A stretch of 64,000 bases of DNA from an uncultured bacterium (lineage in GTDB: Bacteria; Oederibacteriota; Oederibacteriia; Oederibacteriales; Oederibacteriaceae). The position numbers were made by a program, and so were the translations under genes. This document shows, one piece after another, positions 43,064 to 60,304 of the stretch (its first letter is position 1; each line of letters opens with the position of its first letter). Location: assembly GCA_965112635.1 (NCBI GenBank), contig OZ218778.1, forward strand, positions 320,001-384,000, written 5' to 3'. A model generated the notes under the pieces. That model was not told the DNA's origin. It saw nothing but the letters and a program-made list of their open reading frames with translations, and did no database searches.

Positions 43064-43092
43064 GTTTGCAGCTCCTCTAATAAAAGTTTGCT

Positions 43093-43229
43093 GTGGACTT
43101 TCACTCTTTCACTATCGCCGCTACCCGGATAGCCCGTATGGGGCTGACTGGGCATTTGTTCTGGCAGATGCCGCACCCCACGCACAGGTCCGCGTCCACT
43201 TCCGGCCTCCGGACCCGCCTGGCTCCCGC
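43093..43229 (-). repeat. Orphan copy of the last 42 codons of the polyferredoxin gene (direct repeat of 44058-44194)
   Basis: 137 bp with 12 mismatches by manual alignment; encodes AGARRVRRPEVDADLCVGCGICQNKCPVSPIRAIRVAAIVKE*. Confidence 0.9.
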
Positions 43230-43310: not shown

Positions 43311-43493
43311 TCACCCTTGATGTTGTTGAAGTTTTCGCCAGAAATCTCCAAGCCTTCCTTCATTCGCCCCTTTTTGAAAATAGACAATTTTCTCATCAGC
43401 CGTCATGTCCTTTGTCTCCCGATATATTTTCTCCTGCGCCTTCCGCTTTAATTCAATACAATCAAAACTCTTTTTTACTGCCAATTTAATCAC
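43311..43493 (-). CDS. Small putative antitoxin partner of the PIN protein
   Basis: KKSFDCIELKRKAQEKIYRETKDMT; overlaps the PIN stop codon. Confidence 0.65.
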   Translation of the reverse strand: MIKLAVKKSFDCIELKRKAQEKIYRETKDMTADEKIVYFQKGANEGRLGDFWRKLQQHQG

Positions 43494-43947
43494 GGCCCAG
43501 CACCTCCCTAGGTGTAACAATACTTAAAAGAGCATACCCTTTTTTAAGATTAACCTCGTTATATAAACGCATCTTCTCTAAATTAACAATGTGTTTGAAA
43601 TTCCACGAAACGATCGCATCAGCCTGATAAATAGTAGCGCAAGCTACATGGCCCGCGTCTGTCTCTGACTTTAAGGTTAATATCCCCGCTTTAATATAAC
43701 CTTCACTCAATTTTTCAACTTCCTTTGTAAAAATTACCCTTTCAAAACTCTGAATTGGAATCCTTTGAAATATGTTTTGTATATAATCTGGTGCATCCCT
43801 TAATTCATTAATAACCAAATCGCTGATCAAAACTTTATATTTCCCAGATGCAATACTATCCAGCAAACGCAGGGATTCCTCGGCAAACTCCTTATCAAAA
43901 CATCCCCCGAAAATTGAAGTGTCCAAATAGATCCGTAATGGTTTCAT
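43486..43947 (-). CDS. PIN-domain (VapC-like) toxin
   Basis: IYLDTSIF, DAGHVACA, IVSWNFKH; AT-rich relative to the polyferredoxin gene. Confidence 0.85.
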   Translation of the reverse strand: MKPLRIYLDTSIFGGCFDKEFAEESLRLLDSIASGKYKVLISDLVINELRDAPDYIQNIFQRIPIQSFERVIFTKEVEKLSEGYIKAGILTLKSETDAGHVACATIYQADAIVSWNFKHIVNLEKMRLYNEVNLKKGYALLSIVTPREVLGRD

Positions 43948-44065
43948 GTATTAACAATACCATATCAAACTTGCCCCATAAAGATTGAAGTTCAGGACTA
44001 TTCCCATATATGAAAAGTACCTAAAAAGGTGCCGGGCTTGGATCTTTAAAGGTTGTCGTGGACTT

Positions 44066-45628
44066 TCACTCTTTCACTATCGCCGCTACCCGGATAGCCC
44101 GCATGGGGCTTACCGGGCATTTGTTCTGGCAGATGCCGCACCCTACACACAGGTTCGCATCCACTTCAGGTCTCCTAACTCGCCTGGCTCCCGCCTTGCC
44201 CACTTTTTTAATAGCCTTGTCCGGGATGGGACAGTGTTCTTCACACACCAGGCACTCTTTGTTTTCCGCCCAGGCCAGGCAGATATCGCGGTCCACCATG
44301 GCCAGGCCAAGTTTGGTCTTTTCCTTGACCTCCAGCTCCAGGGCCGGGATGGCGCCCGTGGGGCACACCTGGCCGCACAGGTTGCATTCGTATTCGCAAT
44401 AGCCTATTTCCGGTACCAGCCTGGGAGTCCAGATGCCCTCTACCCCTGACTGCATCGCCGTGGGCTGCAATCCGTTGGTGATGCAGACCTTCATACAGTT
44501 GCCGCAGCGAACGCAGCGCTCTTTAAATTCGCTTTCTTTGAGCGCCGCGGGAGGACGGATCACCCCGCCCTCCTGGAACTTCCAAAAAGTTTTCAGCTGA
44601 GGTTTTTCTTTGACCTTGAGAAACTGAGCTGCCCAGCTGACAGAAGATAAGGATAAAAGTGAGGTGGTTGAGAGAAAAAGAAAATTAGCCCGGGTAAGTT
44701 TTGGGCCGCTTTGCTCTTCAGGGATTTTTTTCTGTTTTTTCCCAACACGGGAAAATGTAAAGCGGGTGACATCCTGGGGACAATCATATAAACAGTCCAT
44801 GCACAGGATGCACTCTCCCTTGGTGTAGTTACCGTCGTCATGGATGGCGCCCATCCGGCACTTTTTTTTGCATATCTTGCACCCGATACATTTACCCACG
44901 CTCCGTTCCAGCCAGGAAAACCTGGCTGTCAGACCATAGACAGCTCCCAGGGGGCACAAGGTTCGGCACCACAGCCTGGGTAGGACTAGGGCTGCTCCGG
45001 CAATGACCAGAAAAAAAAGAAAAATATAAAATGAACTGGAAAAATAATAAGGGGTGATCCCAAGTAAACTGTTCTTGAGCTGGCGGTAAAAGTCGTAGAC
45101 CGCGCCTGTCAGGTGCAGATCCCTAACCAGAAACATAAAAAACCTGTCCAGCCCAACTGTGGCCGTGGGGATGAGGTTGAGCGAGACAAACCTAGCCATG
45201 ATGGCCATGGGGTCCAAGACCCACGCCGCCTGGATACCGCCAAGGGCCAGGGTGAAAATAACCCCCGTGACAAATATTTTTATCCACCTCAACTTACGGT
45301 TAGTGGAGTCTCCGAGGCCCGGACCGGTCAATTTGGTTTTTTTGAATATCCTCACCCCGTCCAGGGTCGCTCCCAAAGGGCATATCCAGCCGCAGAAAAA
45401 CCTACCCAGCACTAGGGTGGCCAGGAGCATCAATATGGAAAAGATAAGGCCAGGCAACAGGATCCGTTCAGCCAGGGCCGTAAAAAGCATGACTGACGGG
45501 TTTATCTTGAAAAAAAGATCAGAGGGCAAACTTCCGTGCAGAGGATAGGTCGTGGACCAGAGTATATACACGAACAGGGCAAAGAAAAAGGCCTGCGACA
45601 GCCTTCGCACCATGATCCATGTTCGCAT
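44066..45628 (-). CDS. Membrane polyferredoxin (NapH/MauN-like N-terminus fused to NapG/MauM-like domain)
   Basis: GRFFCGWICPLG, WCRTLCPLG, IRPPAA, several CxxCxxCxxxC motifs. Confidence 0.88.
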   Translation of the reverse strand: MRTWIMVRRLSQAFFFALFVYILWSTTYPLHGSLPSDLFFKINPSVMLFTALAERILLPGLIFSILMLLATLVLGRFFCGWICPLGATLDGVRIFKKTKLTGPGLGDSTNRKLRWIKIFVTGVIFTLALGGIQAAWVLDPMAIMARFVSLNLIPTATVGLDRFFMFLVRDLHLTGAVYDFYRQLKNSLLGITPYYFSSSFYIFLFFLVIAGAALVLPRLWCRTLCPLGAVYGLTARFSWLERSVGKCIGCKICKKKCRMGAIHDDGNYTKGECILCMDCLYDCPQDVTRFTFSRVGKKQKKIPEEQSGPKLTRANFLFLSTTSLLSLSSVSWAAQFLKVKEKPQLKTFWKFQEGGVIRPPAALKESEFKERCVRCGNCMKVCITNGLQPTAMQSGVEGIWTPRLVPEIGYCEYECNLCGQVCPTGAIPALELEVKEKTKLGLAMVDRDICLAWAENKECLVCEEHCPIPDKAIKKVGKAGARRVRRPEVDANLCVGCGICQNKCPVSPMRAIRVAAIVKE

Positions 45629-46627: not shown

Positions 46628-46903
46628 TCGTGCCTCCCTTTTTGGCATAAATGCATAGAACTTTCTAAATATTAGCAAAAAAACACGGCCTCGTCTCTTT
46701 TGTTTCGTATCAAAGTGTATCAATCATCACTTTTCACTTATTGACTGATAAAATGTTTTTACAGCCTTGTTATAAAGAATACCCTCCCCTATAATTATTG
46801 AAGATTCTGTATCTGATATTATTTAACAATCGGGAAGGAACTTCCTTGCCCTCTAGTTGTCTAATAAAAGCTAGATATTAGACCCTCTTTTAAAGGAATA
46901 TAC

Positions 46904-49900
46904 ATGCAAGAAAAAGGCCAAACAAACTTTTTCCTTATAACCAGAAAGATCATCCTCTCCTTTATTTTTCTTACTGTTTTTCTGCTTGTGGCTGCCTTGA
47001 CCAGTTGGGGCCAGCAGGTCACAGGCATCGCGGTCCACGGCCCCTACAGCGGCCAGACTATCCTGACTTGGAATGAAGTGGATTCGCCAGTTACCTCGTA
47101 TATTAATCAGGGCCAGTTGGAAGGCCTCCTCCAGTATGGGCTGACTTCTACCCCAGTCGTGACCTACAATATTTACCGTTCTCTTTCACAAATTATCTCG
47201 GTCAATGCCTTGACCCCTTTCGCCACAGGAGTTCCACAACTCACGGGTTGGAACTACGAATACATTTCCAATACGGACGTCAATGGCTGTTACAACGCCA
47301 GCTCGCCGGCTCCTTTATTTGTTGTGGATGAAGGGCCAGGCAACATGACACCGCAGTCTCCCGTCACTCCAGGAACAGGTGTTTATGCCAATAACCCTGC
47401 TACAGCTGGGCAGGCCTATTATGCGATCACTGTGTCAACCGCTGGGGTAGAAAATAAGACCATTACTGTCGGCCAAAACTCTTTGGCTAGCCCGGTCAGT
47501 GAAACGGTCGGACAGGGCGACCCCATTCTTCAAAGCATCACTGCCGAAACGAACTGGAATTATGTTGCTGCTGATACCTGTTATGCCTATGCCAGGTGGG
47601 AGACCTTTCCCAATAGTTCCATAGCAAGCCACCCCATGAATTATGCTCTGCGAGTGCCCCAAGGAACATCTTTCCCGGCTCCTCTGGGGATAAACCTGCA
47701 TTGTTGGGGGGCCTGTGTCAACGACCCCTGTTTTTATCCTCCCAATGTGGGCGCAGCCAGTACCACCCCTCCGCATCTATCAATGCTTGTTAGTTCCAAT
47801 GAAGATCCCTATGACTGGTGGACGGGATATCATGAGCTGTATTATAGCGGGTCGAGCAGTCCCAGCTGGGCCACCAATGGTGTAGTCCATGATTATTCCG
47901 AACAGAGGATGTTATCTATTTACGATTGGATCACCGCCAATTGGAACGGTGGAGGGAAAGTAGATTCAACTAGGGGATTCATCGCTGGAGTATCTATGGG
48001 CGGCTCAGGAACAGCCATGTTGATGTTGCGTTATCCTGACCGGTTTGCCTGGGCCTATTCCAGCGTGGGAGTCCATATTCCTTTATTATCCCCAACTTTT
48101 GAGGGTTCTTACGCGGGTGTGTATGGCGACCCTACCTGGAATGTTCTATACCAGAGCCTGACCACCACGCCTCATATCAGGGCCTTTGACTATTTTGACG
48201 ACACCTGGTTCCTGGCCAACAACCCCCAGCAAGAGATAGGTTATATGTGCTTTGCCAATGGAAAAAATGATGGAGCTATTGGTTGGAACCAGTCCTGGTT
48301 ATACCTGCAGGCTATGAAAGCCGCCAAGATACCTTTTATTTTTTATTGGACTCAGAATGGACATAGCACACGAGCCTGCGGGCCCTATCCTAGTGCCGCT
48401 AATAATATGGCGTTGGATTTACAAAACAACCAGAGCCTGCCGGCCTTTAATAACTGCAGTCTGGATGATGATCCGGGGGACGGGGTTTGCGACGGCAGCG
48501 GCAGCGGCCTCAACGGCGGGACTCACGGAGCACCGGTGGGGGCTATTAATGGCTGGCTTAACTGGAATCCGGCCACGATCATAGATACCGCCGGTTCCTG
48601 GCAAATGGATATAGGCATGGTGACCGCGGCTCAAGGCCTGACCTGGGCGGCCAACTGCACCGTGGACCTGACCCCGCGGAGATTACAGCACTTTAGCGTC
48701 AGCCCTGCACAGTGTTTTAACTGGACCAATACAGACCTGAATTCCAGCACGGTAGTCCAGTCAGGAACGACCGCAGCCGATGCCAATGGCCATATCACCA
48801 TCACCGGCCTCATTCTCAAAAACCAGATCGCCAACGAGAACAGGATCAATATCTTTCCGCGGCCAGTGTGCGCCTCTCCCACGAACTCACCCTCTCCGAC
48901 CATGACCTACACGGCCGGGCCCTCGCAGACCGGCACTGCCACCTATTCCGCGACTCCTACGACCACTCAAACCACTACCATTACTCAAACCGCCTCAGCC
49001 ACCCCGACCTATACTGCCGGGCCCAGCCAGACCGGGACAAACACCAGTACTTCTACTTGTACTTTCACGGCGACCGCTGCCTGCGTGCAGTTCCTGGCTG
49101 ATTGCAAGATCGCAGAAGTTCCCAATGGAAATACCAACGGCAAAGTGGTCAATCCCACTGTAGGGTTTTCAGGCACGGTTGTGATAAATGGTACTGGCTC
49201 CATCACCTTTAACCCCTTTGAACCGGTAGGGAGCCCTACGGATGGGTTCTTTTGCGGGGTGGGCGGAGTTAACAACCAATCAGGATACTGGAACTGGTCT
49301 GGGGCCCAGGTAGGTAATATTTTCAATCCCAACGGCGGAGATGTTATTTTTTATTGGAAATCCTACGCCAGTCTTGCCCAGCGGAATACAGATAACAGAA
49401 CAGGATGGTGTTTTGGCGTCACAGACGATGGAACGAGAACAATATGGCGCATTGAAGTGACCCCGGGCGGTGGTTTTTGTACTATAACCTGGCAAGCAAA
49501 TAGCACTGGCGCCAATCAAGTCTTTGACACTACCTATACCGTCAATGCTGGAGAAATAGCAAAATTTAGATTATCGTGGACAGCTACAACGCAAACACTC
49601 TACATAAACGATATTTTAATTCAAACTGGCGCCACGACTGCCTACACTCCCAGTTGGGGCCCATCATCACAGTTTAATATCGGGGCGTCAGCTGGTGATA
49701 ATGGCTTTTCGGGCTGGAAAGCCTGCAATGATACTGTTGCCGACCTCCAGGTCAATGCCACTTGCGCGGGAAACACTAACACTCCCACTTTGACGGCTAC
49801 TTTGACCGGGACAGCCAGTCCGACAGCCACTCCCACCTTGACCTACACAGTCGGCCCCAGCCAGACGGCCACAGCGACTCCCACCATCACCACTACAGGC

Positions 49901-50752
49901 ACCGCGACCTGTACCGCCACGGTCACGGCATCGTCCAGCAGCACCGGAACCAGGACTTTCACTGGCACAGTCACAGTGACCCCTTCTCTTACCCTGACTC
50001 CCAGTTCTACGAATACCATCACCCAGACCCCGACTTCCAGCACAACCGCGACGGCCACCCAGACCAGCACGCAGACTCTGACTCCCAGTCAGACCCTTAC
50101 GGCCACGGCGACTCCCACCCGGACCAATACGGCCACCCAGTCCGCTACCTTTACCCAAACCCTGACCTCCAGCCAGACCTATACCATCACTCAGACTTTT
50201 ACTTCTACCGCGACCCCCAGCCAGACCTATACTTTTACCCAAACCGCCACCTTTACTCAGACTTCAACCCCCAGTCAAACCTTGACTCCTTCTAACACCG
50301 TGACTCCTTCCCTGACTGTGACCTCGAGCAACACCCTGACCTCCAGCCTTACCTTTACCAGCTCACCCACTTGTTCACCCACGGCCAGCGCACCCCTATG
50401 GATCGTGCAGCATGTTCCTTATCCCAACCCGGTCAGGGACATCAACGGTGGCATGAAAATTTACATCAGGATGACAGATGTGCCGGACCGCATATCCTTC
50501 CGAATTCACACAACAGCCATGCGGATGATCTGGGCTTCATCGGTAATAAGCCCGGCTGACTCCCCCTGGCTCCAGATCGAATATGATGGAGGGGTGGCGC
50601 TGTTTACTTATACGCTGCCTTACAATCTTAAGGATATGCACAACGTTGCCTTGGCCAACGGCATGTACTATTACACCATCACTGCCAACACCATGTCCGG
50701 TAAGAACAGCCGACAGGCCAGAGTGATAGGAAAATTTGTGATCACAAGATGA
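46904..50752 (+). CDS. Large secreted alpha/beta-hydrolase-like protein with lectin-like domain, Thr-rich stalks and T9SS-CTD-like C-terminus
   Basis: Signal peptide; GVSMG nucleophile elbow; two TxT tracts; YPNP...GMYYY...GKFVITR. Confidence 0.75.
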   Translation: MQEKGQTNFFLITRKIILSFIFLTVFLLVAALTSWGQQVTGIAVHGPYSGQTILTWNEVDSPVTSYINQGQLEGLLQYGLTSTPVVTYNIYRSLSQIISVNALTPFATGVPQLTGWNYEYISNTDVNGCYNASSPAPLFVVDEGPGNMTPQSPVTPGTGVYANNPATAGQAYYAITVSTAGVENKTITVGQNSLASPVSETVGQGDPILQSITAETNWNYVAADTCYAYARWETFPNSSIASHPMNYALRVPQGTSFPAPLGINLHCWGACVNDPCFYPPNVGAASTTPPHLSMLVSSNEDPYDWWTGYHELYYSGSSSPSWATNGVVHDYSEQRMLSIYDWITANWNGGGKVDSTRGFIAGVSMGGSGTAMLMLRYPDRFAWAYSSVGVHIPLLSPTFEGSYAGVYGDPTWNVLYQSLTTTPHIRAFDYFDDTWFLANNPQQEIGYMCFANGKNDGAIGWNQSWLYLQAMKAAKIPFIFYWTQNGHSTRACGPYPSAANNMALDLQNNQSLPAFNNCSLDDDPGDGVCDGSGSGLNGGTHGAPVGAINGWLNWNPATIIDTAGSWQMDIGMVTAAQGLTWAANCTVDLTPRRLQHFSVSPAQCFNWTNTDLNSSTVVQSGTTAADANGHITITGLILKNQIANENRINIFPRPVCASPTNSPSPTMTYTAGPSQTGTATYSATPTTTQTTTITQTASATPTYTAGPSQTGTNTSTSTCTFTATAACVQFLADCKIAEVPNGNTNGKVVNPTVGFSGTVVINGTGSITFNPFEPVGSPTDGFFCGVGGVNNQSGYWNWSGAQVGNIFNPNGGDVIFYWKSYASLAQRNTDNRTGWCFGVTDDGTRTIWRIEVTPGGGFCTITWQANSTGANQVFDTTYTVNAGEIAKFRLSWTATTQTLYINDILIQTGATTAYTPSWGPSSQFNIGASAGDNGFSGWKACNDTVADLQVNATCAGNTNTPTLTATLTGTASPTATPTLTYTVGPSQTATATPTITTTGTATCTATVTASSSSTGTRTFTGTVTVTPSLTLTPSSTNTITQTPTSSTTATATQTSTQTLTPSQTLTATATPTRTNTATQSATFTQTLTSSQTYTITQTFTSTATPSQTYTFTQTATFTQTSTPSQTLTPSNTVTPSLTVTSSNTLTSSLTFTSSPTCSPTASAPLWIVQHVPYPNPVRDINGGMKIYIRMTDVPDRISFRIHTTAMRMIWASSVISPADSPWLQIEYDGGVALFTYTLPYNLKDMHNVALANGMYYYTITANTMSGKNSRQARVIGKFVITR

Positions 50753-50819
50753 CCCGTAGCCGGATGGATGGATTTGGATTGCAATAACTTTGATGCAGGG
50801 CCGTGGACCCTGTAGTGCA

Positions 50820-50867
50820 AGCGGTCATACACAGAATAAAGCATTAAAAATATCAATAATTAAATAG
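50820..50867 (+). pseudogene. Relic C-terminal fragment homologous to the end of 51001..54633
   Basis: Encodes SGHTQNKALKISIIK* versus SGQTQKKALKISIIK*; 39/48 nt identical. Confidence 0.75.
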
Positions 50868-51000
50868 GAATTTGAACTAACTGCCACTCCCTCTTAAAAA
50901 CTATAAAAAACCCCTTCCCTGGTACCCGAAAAACCAAATAAATTCCTCTAAAGCTAATCATTTAAATATTTTTTGCTACAATGGGCTTCTAGGAGAGCGT

Positions 51001-54000
51001 ATGCATAAAACAGCTCTGATCCCTTGTAGGATTGTGATCCTATTACTGCTCCTCGTAGTATATCCCCTTCTTTTATCGGCCCAATCGACCCAATCCTGCC
51101 CACCCCTGTTTTATGTAGCCGGGAAAAGTTCTGAAGTTCCTGGTGGAAATGTTAACGGACAGCCTGTCAATCCACAGATAGGCCCGCCAGGTTTTGTCCA
51201 TTTGCAAGGCAATGGTTATGTGACCTTTGATCCTTTTGAGCCTGGCGGCTCCCCTACCGATGGTGTGATTTTTGGCCCAGGCGGCCAATCCCCCAACGGC
51301 GCCTATTGGAGCTGGACAGGAGCTAATGTAGGGAACATTTTCAACTCTACTTGCGGAAACGATATTACCTTCTACCTCAAGTCCAGCTATACCTGGGCCC
51401 AAAGGCTGGCTGGTCCTCAAACCTACGCCTGGGATGTCACCGATAACGGCGGCAATTCAGTGTTCAATTTTTCCTACGAGCAGATGGCAAACTCATGGCT
51501 GCAGTTCTGCTACCAGGTCGACGCGATTACTAACGTATGCTACATGGTCCCTGCAGGAACCGAAGATGCCCTGTTCGGACTGAATGTTATTTTAAAAGTT
51601 AGAATAAGATGGGATGGGACGAATTGTTATTTGTATCTTAATAACATCTTGGTCCAGATCACACCCTATACCCCCTTTGCCCCGGGTTGGGGCGCAAGCT
51701 CCGTATTTAACCTAGGAGCTACGGCAGCCGGTTTCCCTGGATACTGGAGTTGCATGGACAGCATCGCTGACCTTCAGATTGGCCCATCGAGTTCTTGCAG
51801 CTGCATCCCCACGCCCACACCGCCGGCCCTGGAAGCAGTCCCCTGCGCTTCCCCGGGCACCAACCCGGCTACCTTGACCGGTGTCATCAACACCTATTAT
51901 CCTGGCAATCAGTCCGTAGCGGCTGGGAGTACGGTTATCCCTGTGGGTGCGGCTGTGGGCGGCCCCGCAATCGCTACCGGAGACCTGCTGCTGGTCATCC
52001 AGATGCAGCAAGCAGCCATCAACTCCACCAATACAGTTCAGTATGGCGACGGGCTGGGTGACGCGTCAGGTTCCACGAACCTGCAAGGCACCGGAGTCTT
52101 TGAATACGCCATAGCCGCTGGACCGGTGGCCGGGGGCAATTTGACTCTCGCCGAACCCTTAATCAACAACTACACCGAGGCGGCCGCCACAGCTACCCAG
52201 GGGCAGGAGACCTATCAGGTGGTGCGGGTTCCCCAGTATTTTAACGCCACTTTGACCAATGGCTTGACCGCTGCTCCCTGGAACGGTTCTCTCGGAGGCA
52301 TCCTGGCCTTTAATGACGCGGGCACCCTAAACCTGAACAATGCCGTGGTAAGCGTGGATGCCAAGGGTTTCCGTGGAGGCGGCAGCCGGGAAATGAACGG
52401 CGGAATAGGTCTGGCCACGGACTACGTGGACTCAACAGGCAGCAATTTCAGCGGCCAAAAAGGTGAAGGCATTGCGGGCACTCCCTGGTGGGTGTATGAC
52501 GGCGCGGGAGTGGTCAATACAGGGTTGGAAGGATATCCCAACGGCAGCGCGGCCATGGGAGCGCCGGGAAACGCCGGCGGTGGCTGCACCGACGACGATT
52601 CTGATGGTACTCATGCAAGCAATGGAGGAGGCGGAGGCGGAGGCAATGGCGGCTTCGGCGGCCACGGCGGCAGCAGTTTTGGTTCAGATCTGCTCGTAGG
52701 AGGTTTCGGCGGGGCACCTTTCCCGGCCTCAGCCAACCAGCTCATTATGGGAGGAGGAGGAGGAGCCGGATCCACCAATAACAGCCCGGCCCCTGACAGC
52801 AGCGGTGGAAGAGGCGGTGGCATGGTCTTCTTGAAAGCCTGCACTATGGCTGGCAATGGGACCATTACTGCCAATGGAGAGGTTGGAAAAGACGCTGGGT
52901 TTCAATATCCCTCTGATGGTGGCGGTGGCGGTGGCGCTGGCGGGAGCATGCTGGTCCTGTCCGGAGCTGGGCTGGGCGGCTTGACCGTGCGTGCCGACGG
53001 TGGCAAGGGAGGAGATACGGGGCTGGATAGTCATTATGGGCCTGGAGGAGGAGGCGGTGGTGGCGTAGTGATGCTTTCCAACGCCCCCTTGGCCTCTTCG
53101 GCCATTGGAGGGATCAACGGTTTGACCTTAGGTAATGTCCCTTATAGTTCCACAGCCGGAACCAACGGTATTATCAACATGAATATTCCCTACCCTGAAA
53201 AGAGCTGCATCTGCGGAGTTTCTCCAACCTTCACCTTCACGGCAACATCCACAGCGACTCATACCAACAGCCCCACGCCCACCAGCACCTGCACAGCCAC
53301 CGCCACTCCCACTATTTCGCCCACGGCCACAGTGACGGACACCTCCACAGCCACACCCACTTTCTCTGCTACCGACACACCTTCTAATACGAGCACTATA
53401 ACTCATACAACTACGGCAACCTCCACGGATACCTGGATGCAAAGCCCGACCTTTACAGACACAGCCACTCAAACGGTTACCCCTACCCAGACTTTCACAC
53501 CCACAATATCCAATACCGCCAGCTCTACATCCACGACAACCTCTACGCTTACTATTACCCAAACTAGCTCCATGACTTGGACCAGTTCTCTGACCCTGAC
53601 CCCATCCCTGACCTGGACTCCGTCCAAAACCCAAACCCAGACCCATACCGCCACCGTGACCGCTACCAATACCCCGGTGATGACCAACCTGGAGCTCAAG
53701 GTCTACAACGAAGCCGGTGAAGTGGTCAAAACCTTCAGCAATGTCCTTGTCTTGGGTGGGTTTAGCGGTATCCAGCTTTCCTCAGGCAGCGGCTCTACCA
53801 TCTTTGACCCCAACTCCGGCCTCTTTGATATCGAGATCAAAAGCGCTGGCATCATCTACCATGTCCCCTGGGACGGCAAAAGCGACCTGGGCTACCTTGT
53901 GGACAGCGGGCAATATGTGCTTAAAGCCGATATCCCCGGCCTGCAAGGCAATACGGTCGTCATGCCCCTGACCGTGCTCAAGTCAGGAGACCTTTTGACC

Positions 54001-54633
54001 GTCAGTATCTACACCACCAGCGGAGAGTTGGTCAAACAGCTTTACCAGAGCTATTTCGTCCAGGGACAATTGGGAAGCATGAAGTTGACCAGTAATTTAC
54101 TGCAGATAAGCAATCAACCCACAGGGACAACCACGATCGGGATAAACATCTTTTCCTCCACAGGTCAGTTAATGGCAGATGGGCTAGGCTCCTTGAACCA
54201 AGCCCGCCTGACCTGGGACGGCACCACGGCCTTGGGCAATTATGTGCAAAGCGGAGAGTATTTGATCAAAATAGATCAGACCTACAACCACCAGCACGAT
54301 GTGCTGGTGCAAAGCGTGACCGTGTTAAGCTCCAATTTAAGCGGGTTTATGGACGCTTCGGTCTACCCCAACCCGTACCTCTCCACCCCAGACCACAAGG
54401 TATGGTTTAAGGTCGCTTTGCAGGACCAATCCAACCTGACCGTGAGAATTTATGATGTGGTGGGAGAGCTGGTGAACACCCTCAGCTTGCCCGCAGCCGG
54501 GCCTGGCATTGCCACCCTGGGTTGGGATGTCAATAATGCTGCGGCCGGTCTTTATGTGGGAATTGTAGAAGCCGCTTCACAGGTCAGCGGTCAAACACAG
54601 AAAAAAGCTTTGAAAATCTCGATCATCAAATAA
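51001..54633 (+). CDS. Large secreted adhesin-like protein: lectin-like domain, Gly-rich domain, Thr stalk, two FlgD-Ig domains, CTD
   Basis: GDLLLVIQMQ/YQVVRVPQY; many GGGGG runs; WDGKSDLG..SGQY and WDGTTALG..SGEY; YPNP...KISIIK. Confidence 0.8.
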   Translation: MHKTALIPCRIVILLLLLVVYPLLLSAQSTQSCPPLFYVAGKSSEVPGGNVNGQPVNPQIGPPGFVHLQGNGYVTFDPFEPGGSPTDGVIFGPGGQSPNGAYWSWTGANVGNIFNSTCGNDITFYLKSSYTWAQRLAGPQTYAWDVTDNGGNSVFNFSYEQMANSWLQFCYQVDAITNVCYMVPAGTEDALFGLNVILKVRIRWDGTNCYLYLNNILVQITPYTPFAPGWGASSVFNLGATAAGFPGYWSCMDSIADLQIGPSSSCSCIPTPTPPALEAVPCASPGTNPATLTGVINTYYPGNQSVAAGSTVIPVGAAVGGPAIATGDLLLVIQMQQAAINSTNTVQYGDGLGDASGSTNLQGTGVFEYAIAAGPVAGGNLTLAEPLINNYTEAAATATQGQETYQVVRVPQYFNATLTNGLTAAPWNGSLGGILAFNDAGTLNLNNAVVSVDAKGFRGGGSREMNGGIGLATDYVDSTGSNFSGQKGEGIAGTPWWVYDGAGVVNTGLEGYPNGSAAMGAPGNAGGGCTDDDSDGTHASNGGGGGGGNGGFGGHGGSSFGSDLLVGGFGGAPFPASANQLIMGGGGGAGSTNNSPAPDSSGGRGGGMVFLKACTMAGNGTITANGEVGKDAGFQYPSDGGGGGGAGGSMLVLSGAGLGGLTVRADGGKGGDTGLDSHYGPGGGGGGGVVMLSNAPLASSAIGGINGLTLGNVPYSSTAGTNGIINMNIPYPEKSCICGVSPTFTFTATSTATHTNSPTPTSTCTATATPTISPTATVTDTSTATPTFSATDTPSNTSTITHTTTATSTDTWMQSPTFTDTATQTVTPTQTFTPTISNTASSTSTTTSTLTITQTSSMTWTSSLTLTPSLTWTPSKTQTQTHTATVTATNTPVMTNLELKVYNEAGEVVKTFSNVLVLGGFSGIQLSSGSGSTIFDPNSGLFDIEIKSAGIIYHVPWDGKSDLGYLVDSGQYVLKADIPGLQGNTVVMPLTVLKSGDLLTVSIYTTSGELVKQLYQSYFVQGQLGSMKLTSNLLQISNQPTGTTTIGINIFSSTGQLMADGLGSLNQARLTWDGTTALGNYVQSGEYLIKIDQTYNHQHDVLVQSVTVLSSNLSGFMDASVYPNPYLSTPDHKVWFKVALQDQSNLTVRIYDVVGELVNTLSLPAAGPGIATLGWDVNNAAAGLYVGIVEAASQVSGQTQKKALKISIIK

Positions 54634-54655
54634 GAGAAAACAAACCCGGCCAAGA

Positions 54656-55840
54656 TTACCATTTCCCGTATTTCAATCCCGCCTTGATGTAGCGTTCGGC
54701 ATTGGCCAAAAATTTAGCGGTATGCGCCTCGACCGGCGTGGCCGAGGGCAAAAGAATAGTATGTTCTTTACCGCCAAGGCGAATGGCTGACTTGACCTTT
54801 TCTTCTATCTCGTCCGGCGACAGGGTTTCCATCCAGAGGAATTCAATATTTCCGACCAAGGTCATCTTACCGGCGTAAAATTGCTTGGCTTCCTCGAATT
54901 CAATATCCCCCTGGTCAGGTGGCTCGACCGGGTCCGTGGAATCTACCCCCATCTTGACGAACGAATCCAGCAGGGTTTTCACCTTACCATGGCAGTGCAC
55001 GTGTATTTTGGCCTCAGGGTCGCGCTGTTTGATGCGCCGCATGATCTCGCCGTCATAAGGCTCCACATATTTTTTCCACTGTTTTGGCCCCATCATGGGA
55101 GGAGACGCCCTCTCAATCCCGTTGAAATGCCAGAACGGCCCAACGCCCTGTCGAAGCTGGAAATCCACATTAGCCCAGGTCCGTTCCAACCAGGCGTCTG
55201 CCAGCATTTGGATGAGGATGGGTTCACTGAGGATCCATTCCAGCATCAGCTCGTACTCCATGACCCCGCAAAGCATGGCCACCATGGTATTGACGCTACC
55301 CCCGCCGAGGCAGTCCTTGCCCATTTCCTTACGGTATTGTCGGAAAGGTTCGTAATCCTCGGGTTTTCCTTGGCCTACGTAAAAGGGCACGGAAAGCATG
55401 ATCTCCACGTCGCGGGGAGTTTCGATGGGTCTGTGCATATCCCAGTTGGTCTCGACCCCCTCGTCCCGGTGAAAGGTCCAAAAAAGCTCGCCTTTGGGGG
55501 CATGCAGGATAAAGGTCTGTTCATATCGGTTGGGCCCTATCTTTTTCTCCGGACATTTCTCGATATATTTGGCAGGCGCCTCCAAAAAACGCTGGTAAGA
55601 GATCTCGGTAGCACAAGGCAAAGGCATAGGATTGTAGGGTTGTGGCACCGGATCGCAATACTCCTCCACCAACTCGGCCACCCGGATGAACCCTGGGTCT
55701 GCCCGCCAGCCGCCTGGCTTTTCCTTTTTTATATCCCGCATGGGTGACCAGCTGATGGGCGAGCCGATGGGGATGCGGTCCGTTTTCTGGCCGCGGTAGA
55801 CGGCAAGGATGCGTTTGCTGGATGTCAACAAGTCTGCCAT
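54656..55840 (-). CDS. Uroporphyrinogen decarboxylase / MtaA-CmuA family protein
   Basis: SSKRILAVYRGQKTDRIP, HVHCHG, DPVEPPDQGDI, TLVGNIE. Confidence 0.8.
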   Translation of the reverse strand: MADLLTSSKRILAVYRGQKTDRIPIGSPISWSPMRDIKKEKPGGWRADPGFIRVAELVEEYCDPVPQPYNPMPLPCATEISYQRFLEAPAKYIEKCPEKKIGPNRYEQTFILHAPKGELFWTFHRDEGVETNWDMHRPIETPRDVEIMLSVPFYVGQGKPEDYEPFRQYRKEMGKDCLGGGSVNTMVAMLCGVMEYELMLEWILSEPILIQMLADAWLERTWANVDFQLRQGVGPFWHFNGIERASPPMMGPKQWKKYVEPYDGEIMRRIKQRDPEAKIHVHCHGKVKTLLDSFVKMGVDSTDPVEPPDQGDIEFEEAKQFYAGKMTLVGNIEFLWMETLSPDEIEEKVKSAIRLGGKEHTILLPSATPVEAHTAKFLANAERYIKAGLKYGKW

Positions 55841-55848
55841 AAAATTTC

Positions 55849-56787
55849 CTAACCAACCTTTTCGGGACGCCCTTTGGCGTCAGTCTGGCGGAGAGCTGGA
55901 CTCATGAATTTTTTGCGGTAAGCCGCTGGAGACAGGCCCATGACCCGGATGAAGGTCCTGTGAAAATGGCTTTCATCGTCAAATCCCCAGTTGAGCGCCG
56001 TGGCTTTCACCGGCTCTTTGGATTGCAACAACTCGATCGCCGCGCTCTGGACCAGTTGCTGCAAAGCGAATTTTCCTAAACTTATTTTCATCAGATCATG
56101 GAATTCCTTGCAGAAGTTCGTACGGGTCATCCCGCAGGCTTTTGCTCCCTCGGCCACGCTGATCTTGCTGCGGCTGTTAAAAACCAGGTCAATGGCCGGG
56201 CCGATCTCACCCAGATTTCCCTTGGCATCCCCGTCCTTCATGGCCGGAGGCTGCCAGCCCCGCATGATCAGCATCAAAAGCCCAAGACATTCCAGCCTCA
56301 AGGCCACTTTATCAGGCCCGTCCAATTGGTCCAACCAGGATTGGTAGGTGATTATCTTTTTGGCCAGACTGAGGATTGTCCTTTTCTTCTCATAGTCCTT
56401 AAAATCAATCCCGGGCCTCTGGCTGGGTGGAACAAAAAATGGGGTCAAAAGGTTTAACCGTGGCTCTTCAGTAAAATGCATCTGGGACATCATCGGTGGA
56501 AAGAAAAAGATCACCAAACCGCTGGAGGGTTTTTCGATTATCTCCATCCCATGCGGTTCCCACATATTGGCTAGCCAGACTTGGCCCGGCCTGACCATGA
56601 GTTCATGGTCTGAGTAGATCTGTTTGGCCTTCCCGGAGATCAAAACTCCGATCTCCAGTTCATAGTGCCGGTCAAACATCCCCTCTTTATCGTTGAATTT
56701 GAAAGTCTCGATTGGTTTTGATGCGGAAAGGCCCAGGAACGCTGGAGTCATGGTCAAAATGCTGGAAGGTATATTGTTTTTCATCAT
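55849..56787 (-). CDS. AraC-family transcriptional regulator
   Basis: Cupin N-terminus (DRHYELEIG...WEPHG); C-terminal GFDDESHFHRTF...GLSPAAYR. Confidence 0.9.
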   Translation of the reverse strand: MMKNNIPSSILTMTPAFLGLSASKPIETFKFNDKEGMFDRHYELEIGVLISGKAKQIYSDHELMVRPGQVWLANMWEPHGMEIIEKPSSGLVIFFFPPMMSQMHFTEEPRLNLLTPFFVPPSQRPGIDFKDYEKKRTILSLAKKIITYQSWLDQLDGPDKVALRLECLGLLMLIMRGWQPPAMKDGDAKGNLGEIGPAIDLVFNSRSKISVAEGAKACGMTRTNFCKEFHDLMKISLGKFALQQLVQSAAIELLQSKEPVKATALNWGFDDESHFHRTFIRVMGLSPAAYRKKFMSPALRQTDAKGRPEKVG

Positions 56788-56962
56788 TTTTCCTTATTTT
56801 GTGCCTCAAATGTTTCACCTGCATTATATCCCATATCCCTTCTGTTTGGACGAATATCCAAGTTTTAGGATATGTTTTTTCAATGAAATATCAGGCTTTT
56901 TCGCTGTTTCAGGTGTCTAATTCTACAAAGAAACATTAAAGGCCATAGAGGAGATTGTTAAA

Positions 56963-58927
56963 GTGTTTAACAAAATTCGTCAAATTATAATCATGACAAC
57001 TTTGCTGATCCCTACTGGAACAAGTTTAAGCTGGGCCCAGTCACCCGCCGCCTATATAGACCCTGAGACTTGGCCATGGATTTGCCAATGTCAGGTCAGG
57101 AATCAGGCCTATCGAGCCGCCCATGGTGGTTTGTCCACAGGTATTGTCTGCCATTTCGGCGACTCAATTACTTATGCTAATCCTAATTCACAATGGGCCA
57201 GGAGCGGTAACGGGTTTACAGCGTCAGACACAGCCATAACACAATGGATGCATGTCAACGGCCACCAGGGGGGCACCGACCCGGCGCCTACAAGCACCAA
57301 TAATTTACCGGCAGATTGTTCGTCCATCAAGGGTGCTAACGATAGCATTTGGGGTAAAGACGGGTGGTGGCTGTCCATAGTGGATATGAGCGGTGCCTAT
57401 TCCAATGGTTCTTATACGGCCATGAGCGGGATAAACTCAACCGAATTTTTGGCCGGATCCGACAACCTCCCCACGCCTGACAAGATGATGGCCTGCTATG
57501 ACCCTGAGCTGGTCATTCTCATGCTGGGAGCCAATGTTGACAACAATGTGGCTACTTTCCAGAGCAACATGGACGCGATCATCCAAATAATCCTGGCCAC
57601 CAACTGTATCCCCATCCTGATGACTTCAACGCCCTGCGGGGGAACCACGGCGAGTTACAACGCGGCGGTCGTGGCCGAGGCACAAAAGTACAGCTTGCCC
57701 CTGATCGATTTTTACGGAGCGATCATGTTCTATCAGCCCGTGAACTGGAATGGCACTCTTCTCCAGCATAACCAGTGCCATCCCTCTGCCTCGGGCCTCA
57801 CCTACACCGCCTCAAGCGACCCCTATGCCGGCAATTACGCGGCTTTGGCCCAGGTGGGTTATTTGTTAAGGGGTTTCCTGATAGTGCAGAAAGTAAAAGA
57901 TGTGTATAACAACTGCATTGTGGGCCCGGCTTGCGGCTCGGGCACGAGTACAGCGACCAACACTCCGGTCCCGGCCAATACAGCCACCCAAACCCAGACT
58001 CCGACGCGGACTTTTACTCAGGCTCCGACAGCAACCGCAACCAATACAGCTACCCCCATGGGGACTTCCACCTATACTTTCACCCCATCGGCAACAGCAA
58101 CCAAAACTTCAACCTCGACCCAGACTGTAACATTCACCCAGACCCTGACCTCAAGTCAGACCTTGACCCCCTCTCAGACCCTGACCCCCAGCCAGACTTT
58201 GACCTCAACCCTTACCCCGACTAGGACTAGCACTTCTACCCAGACTTTGACTCCAAGCCAGACCCTGACCCCCAGTCAAACCTTTACTATCACGGTCACT
58301 TTTACTCAAACCACCACTTCCACCCAGACCTTGACCTCTACCCAGACTCTAACCTCGAGCCAAACCTATACTTCCACGCAAACCTCCACCTCCACGGTCA
58401 CTTCCAGCCAGACCTATACTTCCACCCAAACCTTTACCGTCACCCAAACCCTGACCTCCAGCAACACTCCTACTCCTTCCAATACCACCACCCCTTCCCA
58501 TACGGTGACTCCCAGCTACACCCTGACCTCCAGCATGACCTTTACCAATTCGCCCACTTTCACCCCTACCGCCAGCGCCCCTCTCTGGATCGTCAATCAT
58601 GTCCCCTACCCCAACCCCGTGAGGGACAACAACGGAACAAAGTTCTACATCAAAATGACGGATGTCCCTAACCACATATCTGTCAGGATTTACACGACCT
58701 CCATGCGCCTGGTTTGGGATTTTTCAATTGCCAATCCGGCTTTGCAAATCGAATATGACAACGAGGTCGCCTATTTTACCTTCACTCTCCCCTACAACCT
58801 GACGGACAATCACAATATGTCTCTGGCCAATGGCCTGTATTACTACTCCATCACGGCTAAAAATATGACCAGCTCTACCAATAGCCGCCAGGCCAGGGTT
58901 ATGGGTAAATTGGCTATTCTGAGATAA
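56963..58927 (+). CDS. Secreted SGNH/GDSL hydrolase with Thr-rich stalk and T9SS-CTD-like C-terminus
   Basis: FGDSIT, MLGAN, CHPS; TLTPSQ repeats; YPNP...GLYYY...GKLAILR. Confidence 0.8.
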   Translation: MFNKIRQIIIMTTLLIPTGTSLSWAQSPAAYIDPETWPWICQCQVRNQAYRAAHGGLSTGIVCHFGDSITYANPNSQWARSGNGFTASDTAITQWMHVNGHQGGTDPAPTSTNNLPADCSSIKGANDSIWGKDGWWLSIVDMSGAYSNGSYTAMSGINSTEFLAGSDNLPTPDKMMACYDPELVILMLGANVDNNVATFQSNMDAIIQIILATNCIPILMTSTPCGGTTASYNAAVVAEAQKYSLPLIDFYGAIMFYQPVNWNGTLLQHNQCHPSASGLTYTASSDPYAGNYAALAQVGYLLRGFLIVQKVKDVYNNCIVGPACGSGTSTATNTPVPANTATQTQTPTRTFTQAPTATATNTATPMGTSTYTFTPSATATKTSTSTQTVTFTQTLTSSQTLTPSQTLTPSQTLTSTLTPTRTSTSTQTLTPSQTLTPSQTFTITVTFTQTTTSTQTLTSTQTLTSSQTYTSTQTSTSTVTSSQTYTSTQTFTVTQTLTSSNTPTPSNTTTPSHTVTPSYTLTSSMTFTNSPTFTPTASAPLWIVNHVPYPNPVRDNNGTKFYIKMTDVPNHISVRIYTTSMRLVWDFSIANPALQIEYDNEVAYFTFTLPYNLTDNHNMSLANGLYYYSITAKNMTSSTNSRQARVMGKLAILR

Positions 58928-58973
58928 ACTTGATTTTTATATGGGACAGGTTGAATCCTCAGTGACCAGAAGA

Positions 58974-59057
58974 CTTTATGTGGGAATCATATAAGCCAAC
59001 TCCCTGGTGAGCGGGCAAACACAGAAAAAACCGTTAAAAATCTCGATCGTCAATTAA
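58974..59057 (+). pseudogene. Second relic C-terminal fragment homologous to the end of 51001..54633
   Basis: Encodes LYVGII*ANSLVSGQTQKKPLKISIVN* versus LYVGIVEAASQVSGQTQKKALKISIIK*. Confidence 0.8.
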
Positions 59058-59110
59058 GAGGAATAAACACTTGCTATAATATTTTGAGCAACCGTTTTCA
59101 CTCTGTTGTT

Positions 59111-60304
59111 CTAATCTTCATCAATCCCTTCGGTCGCCAACCTACCTGGCATTTTTTTATGACCCTGAAGATACGGTAAAAATAAAAAGTTGGCGATAAG
59201 CGTGGGGATTACGGCGCTGCCAATGACCGTGGCTACCAGGAACGAGTACTGCTCCTGGGTAACAATACCGTGCGAGAAGCCATATAGGGCCGAGATGGTC
59301 CCAAAGGTAAGACCCGTGGACATCATCAGCGTGTAATACCAGGTTTCTGCTTTCACTTTTCTGAAAATTCTGATCACAGGATACAGGCCGAATATTTTGG
59401 AGATCACCTTAGCGCTAAAAAGCGCCACTAGCACGATTGGTGCACCGGCCAAAGCAATGATGGAGACCAGCGAGCCAGCCCGGATAAAATAGAACGGTGT
59501 GAAAAATCCGACCGTAAGCATACGGAACCTCTCCACCCACTGGTGTTCCTTATAGGCAAACTCAGCCAAAAGCATGCCTGCGATATACGCTGGTAAAACC
59601 GCTTCGCTCCCAGACCAGACCGCAAGCGCACCCAGGCCAAAAAGCACCAGGATGACCCATTTGGATCGGATGGAGGCGGTTTTGTTTCCGTAAATCTTTG
59701 TCAGGAAAGAAGTAACCGCTGGAAACAACGCCAGGATAATCACGCTCGCAATGATAAAAATAACGGTTTTGTAGTCAAAGGGGGCGAAAATAAGTCCGAG
59801 GGCAATGACCGTGCCCAGGTCATTGATAAAACAGGCTCCCAGGATGCCTTTGCCGAACTCGGTTTTGTTAAAACCCGTCTCCAGCATAACCGCGTAAACC
59901 ACCGCCATGGAAGTGGTGGACAGGGCGATACCCGCCAGCCAGCTCGCCCGCGGGTCCCAATGGAGGATAAACCTGGCTAAGGTGGCGCATCCCAGAAAAG
60001 GAGCCAGGAACCCGATCAGGCCCACGATGACGACCTCTTTCCACTTGGAACGCATGACCTTGTGGTCCAGTTCCGCCCCGGCCAAAAAGGTGAGCAAAAC
60101 CGAGCCTGCCGAGGCGATAAAACGCAGCCACTCAAAATTGTTCCCGAAAGCGTTGGGCCCGCAATAATATCCGATGATATTGGCGGCAATAACGCCGGCG
60201 CATATTTCCACTAGCGCGATGGATATCTTGAAATGGTGCGCAATGATAGCTGACACCACGGCCAACCCCAGCCATAAAGCGGCGATAGTATAAATTTGTT
60301 CCAT
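59111..60304 (-). CDS. Cation:proton antiporter (CPA2 family), under a fluoride riboswitch
   Basis: ~12 TM segments, FLAGAEL, ALSTTS, FINDLG. Confidence 0.88.
   Translation of the reverse strand: MEQIYTIAALWLGLAVVSAIIAHHFKISIALVEICAGVIAANIIGYYCGPNAFGNNFEWLRFIASAGSVLLTFLAGAELDHKVMRSKWKEVVIVGLIGFLAPFLGCATLARFILHWDPRASWLAGIALSTTSMAVVYAVMLETGFNKTEFGKGILGACFINDLGTVIALGLIFAPFDYKTVIFIIASVIILALFPAVTSFLTKIYGNKTASIRSKWVILVLFGLGALAVWSGSEAVLPAYIAGMLLAEFAYKEHQWVERFRMLTVGFFTPFYFIRAGSLVSIIALAGAPIVLVALFSAKVISKIFGLYPVIRIFRKVKAETWYYTLMMSTGLTFGTISALYGFSHGIVTQEQYSFLVATVIGSAVIPTLIANFLFLPYLQGHKKMPGRLATEGIDED

Follow-up and report, generated by a model that had tools for sequence, protein, structure and literature searches.

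In rhs genes, C-terminal displacement leaves the old C-terminal piece directly downstream; orphan tips of Rhs and CdiA are described in the available portion of the source, where a circular intermediate is also proposed (Jackson et al. 2009, PMC2935791). In Vibrio cholerae, effector-immunity modules of this species' type VI secretion system (T6SS) are displaced, according to the extract at hand, by homology-facilitated illegitimate recombination (Kirchberger et al. 2017, PMC5361080), as that process is defined in the accessible part of PMC3240628. For the type IX secretion system (T9SS), the excerpted text of Dashper et al. 2017 (PMC5266723) reports domain rearrangement and gene conversion among the cargo proteins Kgp, RgpA and HagA of Porphyromonas gingivalis, and this paper was the sole match in a narrow literature search on gene conversion of type IX secretion C-terminal domains (CTDs). 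Here we describe a stretch of 64,000 nucleotides (hereafter the window), bases 320001-384000 of the genome of an uncultured peat bacterium of the phylum Oederibacteriota, a single contig of 2,876,006 bases. In this window, two short orphan fragments, relics A and B, resemble the 3' end of one secreted-protein gene and lie behind two others whose CTDs belong to a different class.

Three secreted-protein genes on the + strand, P0001, P0002 and P0003, each encode a Thr-rich linker ahead of the CTD (Table 1). The class carried by P0002 is termed CTD-A, and that of P0001 and P0003 is termed CTD-B. Positions within the locus are those of the window, and genes elsewhere are given in genome coordinates.

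Two orphan CTD-A tails behind CTD-B genes

The last codons of P0002 (SGQTQKKALKISIIK and the stop codon, at 54586-54633) recur twice, as had been claimed in an earlier note made on this DNA from the letters alone: at 50820-50867 with 9 of 48 nt changed, all at third codon positions, and at 58974-59057 with one in-frame stop. The core of relic A reads SGHTQNKALKISIIK followed by a stop codon, and its differences from the P0002 tail are distributed 0/0/9 over the three codon positions. Its top local alignment score was 59, against a maximum of 23 in 200 shuffles, and a genome-wide search with a DNA profile of nine intact tails found it at E 3.4e-5. For relic B, the secure part is 82% identical over 90 nt to 54550-54639 and contains an in-frame TAA at 58992-58994; its alignment score was 100 (shuffle maximum 27), and the tail profile matched it at E 1.3e-18. 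When two gaps are allowed, relic B reaches upstream to 58942, an extension that by itself is moderately supported, its score being equalled by 5 shuffles and 16 random genomic pieces out of 300 each.

As the same note had stated, each relic lies less than 100 bp past a CTD-B gene. Relic A begins 68 nt past the P0001 stop (50752). Relic B begins 47 nt past the P0003 stop (58927) if only its secure part is counted, and 15 nt past it if the extension is included. Extending relic A back to 50753, at the P0001 stop, is conceivable but was set aside: the extension is marginal (out of 300 each, 3 shuffles and 5 genomic pieces equalled its score), fits poorly with the undecayed tail, and begins with a 'CCCG' that also follows other CTD-B stops. 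A common origin of the two relics was rejected as well, the upstream parts resembling different CTD-A subtypes and sharing no indels.

The genome-wide check that the note had proposed in TBLASTN style was carried out with the DNA tail profile. Besides the two relics, it returned nine close intact copies (E <= 1.9e-19) and two distant intact copies (E 0.058 and 0.64); no further orphan CTD-A tail was found in the genome by this search, all remaining matches having E >= 1.2. Relics A and B are the sole two orphan CTD-A tails of the genome.

The 15 pairs among six intact tails differ on average at 10.0 nt per 48, with 73% of the differences at third positions. Compared with the same six tails, relic A differs at 10.3 nt per 48 (third-position share 0.81) and relic B at 9.8 (0.75), and tail-to-tail synonymous divergence (dS) ranges from 0.4 to saturated and nonsynonymous divergence (dN) from 0.03 to 0.2, relics included. 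Since the relics differ from intact tails as intact tails differ from one another, in number and in position, with low dN and high dS, they are old members of the tail family. The description of these fragments as relics of coding sequence was therefore borne out. They had stayed under protein-level selection until recently, with little decay since then; on the sequence evidence, relics A and B are non-functional, recently orphaned 3' ends of former CTD-A genes.

Sorting-domain classes of the genome

The CTD-A of P0002 scored above the curated cut-offs of PF13860 FlgD_ig (57.4 bits; cut-off 27), PF18962 Por_Secre_tail (27.8; 27) and TIGR04183 (25.4; 23), and CTD-A is a FlgD_ig / T9SS type A sorting domain. 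The CTD-Bs of P0001 and P0003 gave no direct match in Pfam and NCBIfam at E <= 0.1. Profile comparison with hhalign gave CTD-B a probability of 93.5% against CTD-A and 99.6% against a third class, CTD-C, which shows CTD-B to be the same domain as CTD-A with a loop insertion of 14-20 residues.

The CTD-B profile matched 17 places in this genome with at least 95.6 bits. The earlier note had recognized a second CTD type in two genes; it is indeed present in P0001 and P0003 and is not confined to them. In 98 other genomes of the phylum the top match reached only 50.2 bits, so the expanded CTD-B subfamily is seen only in this genome among the 99 searched. Some match at E <= 0.001 occurs in 77 of the 99, this genome among them.

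A six-frame profile scan of the genome detected 68 sorting-domain matches at the ends of open frames of at least 150 amino acids. All strong matches (iE < 1e-9) reach the last residue of the frame, and a few weaker ones end 1-10 residues short. The genome thus contains about 68 genes for surface or secreted cargo, built as head, Thr-rich linker and sorting domain. Cargo genes are packed in tight tandem arrays, as at 1.940-1.956 Mb and 204-229 kb, with 40-82 nt between neighbours, and barrel genes adjoining some cargo genes show weak UPF0164/Toluene_X matches. The cargo genes at 218378-222776 and 689233-691378 each read in two overlapping frames, which may reflect a frameshift, a pseudogene or a sequencing error within the linker region.

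Exchange of C-terminal modules between cargo genes

The last 1,050 nt or so of P0002 are 97% and 98% identical to those of genes 204124-207606 and 1901894-1905550, and BLASTP of the P0002 head against the heads of these two genes returned zero matches. The true head paralog of P0002, gene 225343-229008 (69% amino acid identity), is merely 89% identical in the 3' module. Specifically, the tracts shared with P0002 show 97.5% identity over 1053 nt to 1901895-1902947 and 92.7% over 1238 nt to 206356-207593. The shared tracts start inside the Thr-rich linkers, at 53580 in P0002 and 58259 in P0003, and those of P0002 end about 40 nt ahead of the stop codon. The CTD-A bodies of five genes are 93-100% identical, whereas the last 48 nt of the same genes are 75-85% identical; conversion would rarely reach the tail because homology ends at the stop codon.

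In P0003, the linker and CTD-B show 78.8% DNA identity over 676 nt, ending 4 nt past the stop, to the esterase-headed gene 208728-212558. The P0003 CTD-B has a dS of 0.70 and a dN of 0.065 to its nearest relative, and the P0001 CTD-B has a dS to its nearest relatives of 0.85 or saturated. Gene 208728-212558 is also a full-length paralog of P0001 (74.7% DNA identity); between the two, identity is 80-92% over the LamG-like domain plus linker and drops to 64-72% from the first CTD-B codons on. The CTD-B parts thus have histories at odds with those of their heads.

Taken together, the shuffling of C-terminal modules is real, and it is seen independently of the relics. Modules of this kind pass from gene to gene, the 1,050-nt module of P0002 being present at 97-98% identity in genes with unrelated heads.

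Other orphan tails in the genome

Based on the six-frame profile scan and on DNA searches with all CTD-gene 3' ends, six further orphan CTD tails were identified beyond relics A and B. Because both window relics escaped the six-frame protein-profile scan, short relics were counted from the DNA searches, and these numbers are lower bounds.

One of the six belongs to a nested replacement at 1499929-1501861 (Table 1). The inner cargo gene, 1500327-1501724, encodes a separate signal peptide and a CTD of yet another class. It is flanked by a 133-aa 5' stump and by a 45-codon 3' tail that starts at the inner gene's stop, at 1501725; stump and tail match one older family, with 76.6% and 86% identity to gene 95183-100639. 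A FadL/UPF0164-like barrel gene lies 29 nt behind the tail. New DNA that ends at the stop codon of a cargo gene can thus take the place of an older cargo gene's inner part, with the tail of that older gene left behind.

The other five tails lie in mixed surroundings: one is beside an rve-type insertion sequence (IS) transposase, one is behind a PALP (thrC-like) gene, one is 20 nt before a barrel gene, and two are next to IS110 and IS5-type transposases, within a repeat of 0.9-1.07 kb whose copies are 99-100% identical. Three of the six tails outside the window are thus beside IS transposases or within an IS-associated repeat. The eight orphan tails keep about 14, 14-17, 16, 27, 27, 38, 45 and 85-104 codons; lengths this varied, about 14 to about 100 codons, speak against any constant cut point in the old CTD, and that idea was rejected. 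Separately, the CTD-B gene at 1003833-1007108 is split just past the YPNP motif by an IS256-family (Transposase_mut) element.

Origin of the relics

The C-terminal parts of cargo genes recombine often, mostly by ordinary gene conversion. A typical conversion begins in the repetitive linker and ends a few tens of bases before the stop codon, where homology ceases, leaving no scar. The relics would mark rarer events with homology on one side only, in which a DNA piece ending just past a CTD-B stop codon was inserted, by an illegitimate joint, into the latter half of the resident CTD-A. The last 16-38 codons of the resident gene would then be pushed downstream as an orphan, that is, by C-terminal displacement. 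The incoming piece might be a linker with CTD-B alone, or a whole gene or gene block. In the first scenario (a), linker and CTD would be swapped in situ on the same head; in the second (b), a whole gene or block would arrive, which for relic B would be the block of URO-D, AraC and SGNH genes anchored on the P0002 3' end. To displacement by incoming DNA ending at a CTD-B stop codon, scenarios (a) and (b) jointly, we give about an even chance. We infer that the upstream CTD-B-bearing DNA truncated the CTD-A genes by such a one-sided mechanism, the order of events at both relics being reconstructed from paralogs within one genome.

Several observations are consistent with displacement. An upstream anchor is shared, the tracts beginning in linkers of genes with unrelated heads, and the old C-terminal piece is found directly downstream at relics A and B and at tail 1501725. 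The nested replacement provides a precedent in the same genome, and relic B fits that picture: with its extension, it starts about 10 nt beyond the end of homology between P0003 and the closest CTD-B tract. In addition, the URO-D/AraC/SGNH block is bracketed by direct repeats (90 nt ungapped, 116 nt with the gapped extension), close paralogs of its genes are lacking in the genome, and the duplication at 43-44 kb described below shares this layout. No two tails are more alike than the P0002 tail and relic B, with 6 differences (2/0/4 by codon position in the last 48 nt) and a dS of 0.43, and they agree in 5 of the 6 first bases past the stop. For relic B, the whole block may therefore have entered through CTD homology, as the earlier note had suggested among its options; an insertion anchored on the P0002 3' end would explain both the direct repeat and the closeness of the P0002 tail to relic B.

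Other results weigh against displacement. No 5' stump of a CTD-A gene was found before P0001 or P0003 (a search of 46700-47371 gave no matches), and the P0001 paralog has the same head and a CTD-B, yet no relic lies behind it. No recent donor was found in the genome, the P0003 CTD-B having a dS of 0.70 and the P0001 CTD-B one of 0.85 or saturated; since the relic tails have hardly decayed neutrally, the donor in a swap would have to be one not seen here and probably external. The other orphan tails adjoin IS elements or follow a non-cargo gene, so plain rearrangement also yields such relics. Additionally, the 133 nt between relic A and P0002 match no paralog flank: compared with nine downstream flanks of CTD-A genes and nine upstream flanks of related genes, they did not score above shuffles, and a seeming similarity to the flank of the gene that ends at 1950280 was accordingly discarded. 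The block has normal GC content, and a Pfam search found no recombinase in or beside it.

Finally, the state before displacement was not found in relatives or strain variants among the genomes, clusters and metagenome runs searched. The 801-nt region of relic A had no match in 30 other genomes of the phylum, among which this genome is alone in its family. Neither P0001 nor P0002 shares its 90% cluster with a second full-length member, and P0003 is absent from the clustered collection. Parts of the window sequence occur in six sequencing runs from peat or sediment metagenomes, the best containing 0.49 of the words of the stretch. Contigs from four metagenome runs were 150-485 nt long and mostly identical to it, and none spans a relic. 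In one case the P0003 linker (58272) was loosely joined to the P0001 linker (50336) at a depth of 2.1; this joint falls within low-complexity repeats and was disregarded.

Several of these points also fit plain loss of a neighbouring gene, the main rival, which we consider possible but less probable than displacement. Each relic would then be the last piece of a separate tandem CTD-A gene removed by ordinary deletion, bounded on the left by selection for an intact upstream gene, with the CTD-B gene uninvolved. The tight tandem arrays with their spacers of 40-82 nt would offer the setting for such deletions, orphan tails also occur behind the PALP/thrC-like gene and beside IS transposases, and the combination of the P0001 head with CTD-B is old, being common to the paralog; the absence of a 5' stump and of a recent donor fits as well. 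However, a cargo gene of another CTD class immediately precedes three of the eight orphan tails, and one of these three is the nested replacement, in which both ends of the old gene are kept. Loss of a neighbour also does not account for relic B lying within about 10 nt of the end of the shared CTD-B tract, and leaves unexplained why relic B is closest to the P0002 tail and shares its first bases past the stop.

The direct repeats around the block invite a further explanation, in which relic B and a duplication at 43-44 kb would be traces of site-specific integrative elements, each carrying a surrogate 3' end and since decayed. The 3'-end duplication at 43-44 kb mentioned in the earlier note is real: the 3' end of a 4Fe-4S gene (44066-45628, - strand) recurs as an orphan with 90% identity over 147 nt and 12 differences in 129 coding nt, distributed 2/0/10 by codon position. 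The 818-nt insert between the two copies carries a PIN-domain gene (43486-43947, - strand) and a 69-aa open reading frame (ORF) lacking a family match; its GC content is 0.41, compared with about 0.5 around it. The order of intact end, insert and orphan end is the same as that of P0002 tail, block and relic B, which is suggestive of 3'-end-anchored insertion taking place in this genome. Both inserts are bracketed by direct repeats of a gene 3' end plus a few flanking bases. Most differences between the repeats are synonymous, with counts by codon position of 2/0/10 for the 43-44 kb pair and, over the last 48 nt, of 2/0/4 for relic B; the GC content of the PIN insert is also low. Prophage e14 and phage 21 at icd of Escherichia coli are reportedly arranged in this way, the insert being flanked by two target 3' ends with mainly synonymous differences. 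The 43-44 kb pair and the pair of P0002 tail and relic B resemble them in these flanking copies; unlike in e14 and phage 21, no integrase or phage genes were found in either insert. Transposases are likewise missing, the genes being only URO-D, AraC and SGNH in the one and PIN and the 69-aa ORF in the other. The GC content of the block is ordinary, a resident pair at 207-212 kb is a paralogous counterpart of its AraC-plus-cargo arrangement, and relic A has no partner copy upstream. We consider this explanation unlikely, and it would concern only relic B and the 43-44 kb copy.

Least probable, and very unlikely, is a functional or programmed role, either as a conserved non-coding signal or small peptide or as silent cassettes of a surface-protein switching system: the 48-nt frame of relic A is open and 9 of its 9 differences from the P0002 tail fall at third positions, but that pattern is equally found in every intact-tail pair, and relic B has a stop codon and indels. 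A non-coding signal, which the earlier note had itself named among the outcomes that would refute its reading, was rejected on the basis of ordinary folding (z-scores +0.63 and +0.33, with no excess of RNA structure in the relics), of the absence of promoter-like or terminator-like sites within either relic and of the absence of an Rfam match in them.

The same note had also proposed a recombination-driven cassette system for surface proteins. No support for a dedicated system of this kind was obtained: there is no recombinase at the block, only two CTD-A relics exist genome-wide, and the other orphan tails are of mixed context; of the hallmarks of shufflon-type systems, neither a recombinase nor more than these two CTD-A relics was found. 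The relics are ordinary debris of frequent recombination among surface-protein genes rather than products of a dedicated cassette system, and nothing was found that indicates a programmed one. Its interpretation as a whole thus stands for the relics and the module exchange and falls for the cassette system.

Genes and features around the relics

The features of the locus are collected in Table 1.

Table 1 Features of the relic locus and related orphan tails (window positions unless marked as genome positions)
Feature	Position	Strand	Description
P0001	46904..50752	+	1282 aa, secreted, S9/esterase-like head
CTD-B of P0001	50378..50749	+	Sorting-domain subfamily with 14-20 residue loop insertion (alignment)
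Relic A	50820..50871	+	Last 15 codons and stop of a CTD-A gene, about 4 nt of flank
P0002	51001..54633	+	1210 aa, secreted, carries CTD-A
Recently converted C-terminal module of P0002	53580..54594	+	Starts within the linker and ends about 40 nt short of the stop codon
Intact copy of the 90-nt direct repeat	54550..54639	+	P0002 3' end and 6 nt past the stop
URO-D family gene	54656..55840	-	Pfam PF01208, E 1.5e-17
AraC-type regulator	55849..56787	-	Pfam HTH_18 and HTH_AraC; divergent from P0003
P0003	56963..58927	+	654 aa, secreted SGNH/GDSL-like hydrolase, Thr-rich linker, CTD-B
Linker and CTD-B tract of P0003	58259..58931	+	Common to the unrelated-headed gene 208728-212558 (genome)
Relic B	58942..59063	+	About the last 38 codons of a CTD-A gene and 6 nt of flank; one in-frame stop, two indels
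Na+/H+ exchanger family gene	59111..60304	-	Pfam PF00999, E 2.1e-31; converges on relic B and P0003
Orphan 3' end of 4Fe-4S gene (44066-45628, -)	43083..43229	-	Intact end at 44048-44194
Nested replacement	1499929-1501861 (region to 1502783), genome		Complete cargo gene between a 5' stump and a 3' CTD tail
Other-class orphan tails (five)	1417666-1417980; 1451631-1451712; 2008621-2008702; 2101937-2101979; 2103630-2103671, genome		

P0001 consists of a signal peptide, the S9/esterase-like head, a Thr-rich linker, a LamG-like domain, a second linker and CTD-B; the head matches weakly, with 22.7 bits to Pfam Peptidase_S9 and a further match to Esterase. In P0002, the signal peptide is followed by a LamG-like domain, an AgmC_N-like region (AgmC_N being matched in the NCBIfam search), a Thr-rich linker, two Ig-like repeats and CTD-A. 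P0003 scored 30.5 bits against Pfam Lipase_GDSL_2, under the cut-off of 32.9, and the top homolog of its head is a paralog in its own genome (46%; next best 39%).

Within the block, the URO-D gene has no in-genome paralog with more than 25% identity. The AraC regulator has a sole paralog at E <= 1e-5, at genome 207648-208556 on the - strand (52% amino acid identity), placed likewise before the P0001 paralog. Each of the two AraC regulators is divergently paired with a CTD-B cargo gene directly 3' of a CTD-A gene, and this pairing at both places suggests a regulator-plus-cargo unit. On the far side of relic B, a fluoride riboswitch (RF01734; 60365-60433, - strand; 51.4 bits, E 9.5e-12) lies directly upstream of the Na+/H+ exchanger gene.

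Implications

The locus illustrates how a T9SS-style cargo family evolves within one genome of an uncultured phylum, its 3' modules evolving in concert. Conversion tracts are delimited at one end by the linker and at the other by the point where homology stops, and occasional events would switch the CTD subfamily and leave a scar. For annotation, orphan CTD tails are to be treated as pseudogene debris and not as small genes, and for assembly, near-identical 3' modules of 1 kb are a hazard. The differing histories of heads and tails also bear on the use of CTD type as a guide to cargo history.

A more far-reaching idea, which we hold to be rather improbable, is that swapping the sorting-domain class is an adaptive re-addressing of cargo, with Thr-rich linkers as universal recombination joints through which any head could pass from one CTD subfamily to another, the subfamilies being served by different outer-membrane shuttle barrels. 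If it were true, orphan tails would be footprints of a natural, recurrent 'plug-and-play' surface display in this phylum, based partly on uptake of DNA from related strains.

Comparison with known systems

This finding is a further example of known C-terminal displacement and gene conversion and involves no new mechanism. Its nearest described parallels are the displacement in rhs genes and, just as near, that of T6SS effector-immunity modules. As far as the available text on rhs goes (PMC2935791), both cases have a conserved upstream anchor, a new C-terminal piece that takes over and an old piece dissociated downstream. Unlike in rhs, where the displaced unit is a toxin tip with its immunity gene, the displaced unit here is a secretion-sorting domain. 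The relics start mid-CTD or later, comprise 16-38 codons and are decaying, and set against that same portion of the rhs account they have no re-usable core piece, no partner gene and no arrays.

The V. cholerae T6SS modules, as presented in the extract of PMC5361080, share with the displacement proposed here one upstream homologous anchor, an illegitimate downstream joint and the shifting back of the old 3' end. That extract also assumes two-sided homologous exchange to be far commoner and scarless, as is proposed here. The anchor in the present case would be a low-complexity Thr-rich linker or the CTD itself, and, unlike in the V. cholerae system so described, no retained functional immunity gene accounts for the survival of the remnant.

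With the P. gingivalis cargo genes, in the sections of PMC5266723 at hand, the locus has in common modular C-terminal regions that are reshuffled by recombination into mosaics at odds with the rest of the gene. In those sections the evidence comes from many strains, whereas the present case rests on paralogs from a single genome of a different phylum. The adhesin modules vary there and the CTD is constant; here, it is the sorting domain itself, together with its subfamily, that would be exchanged.

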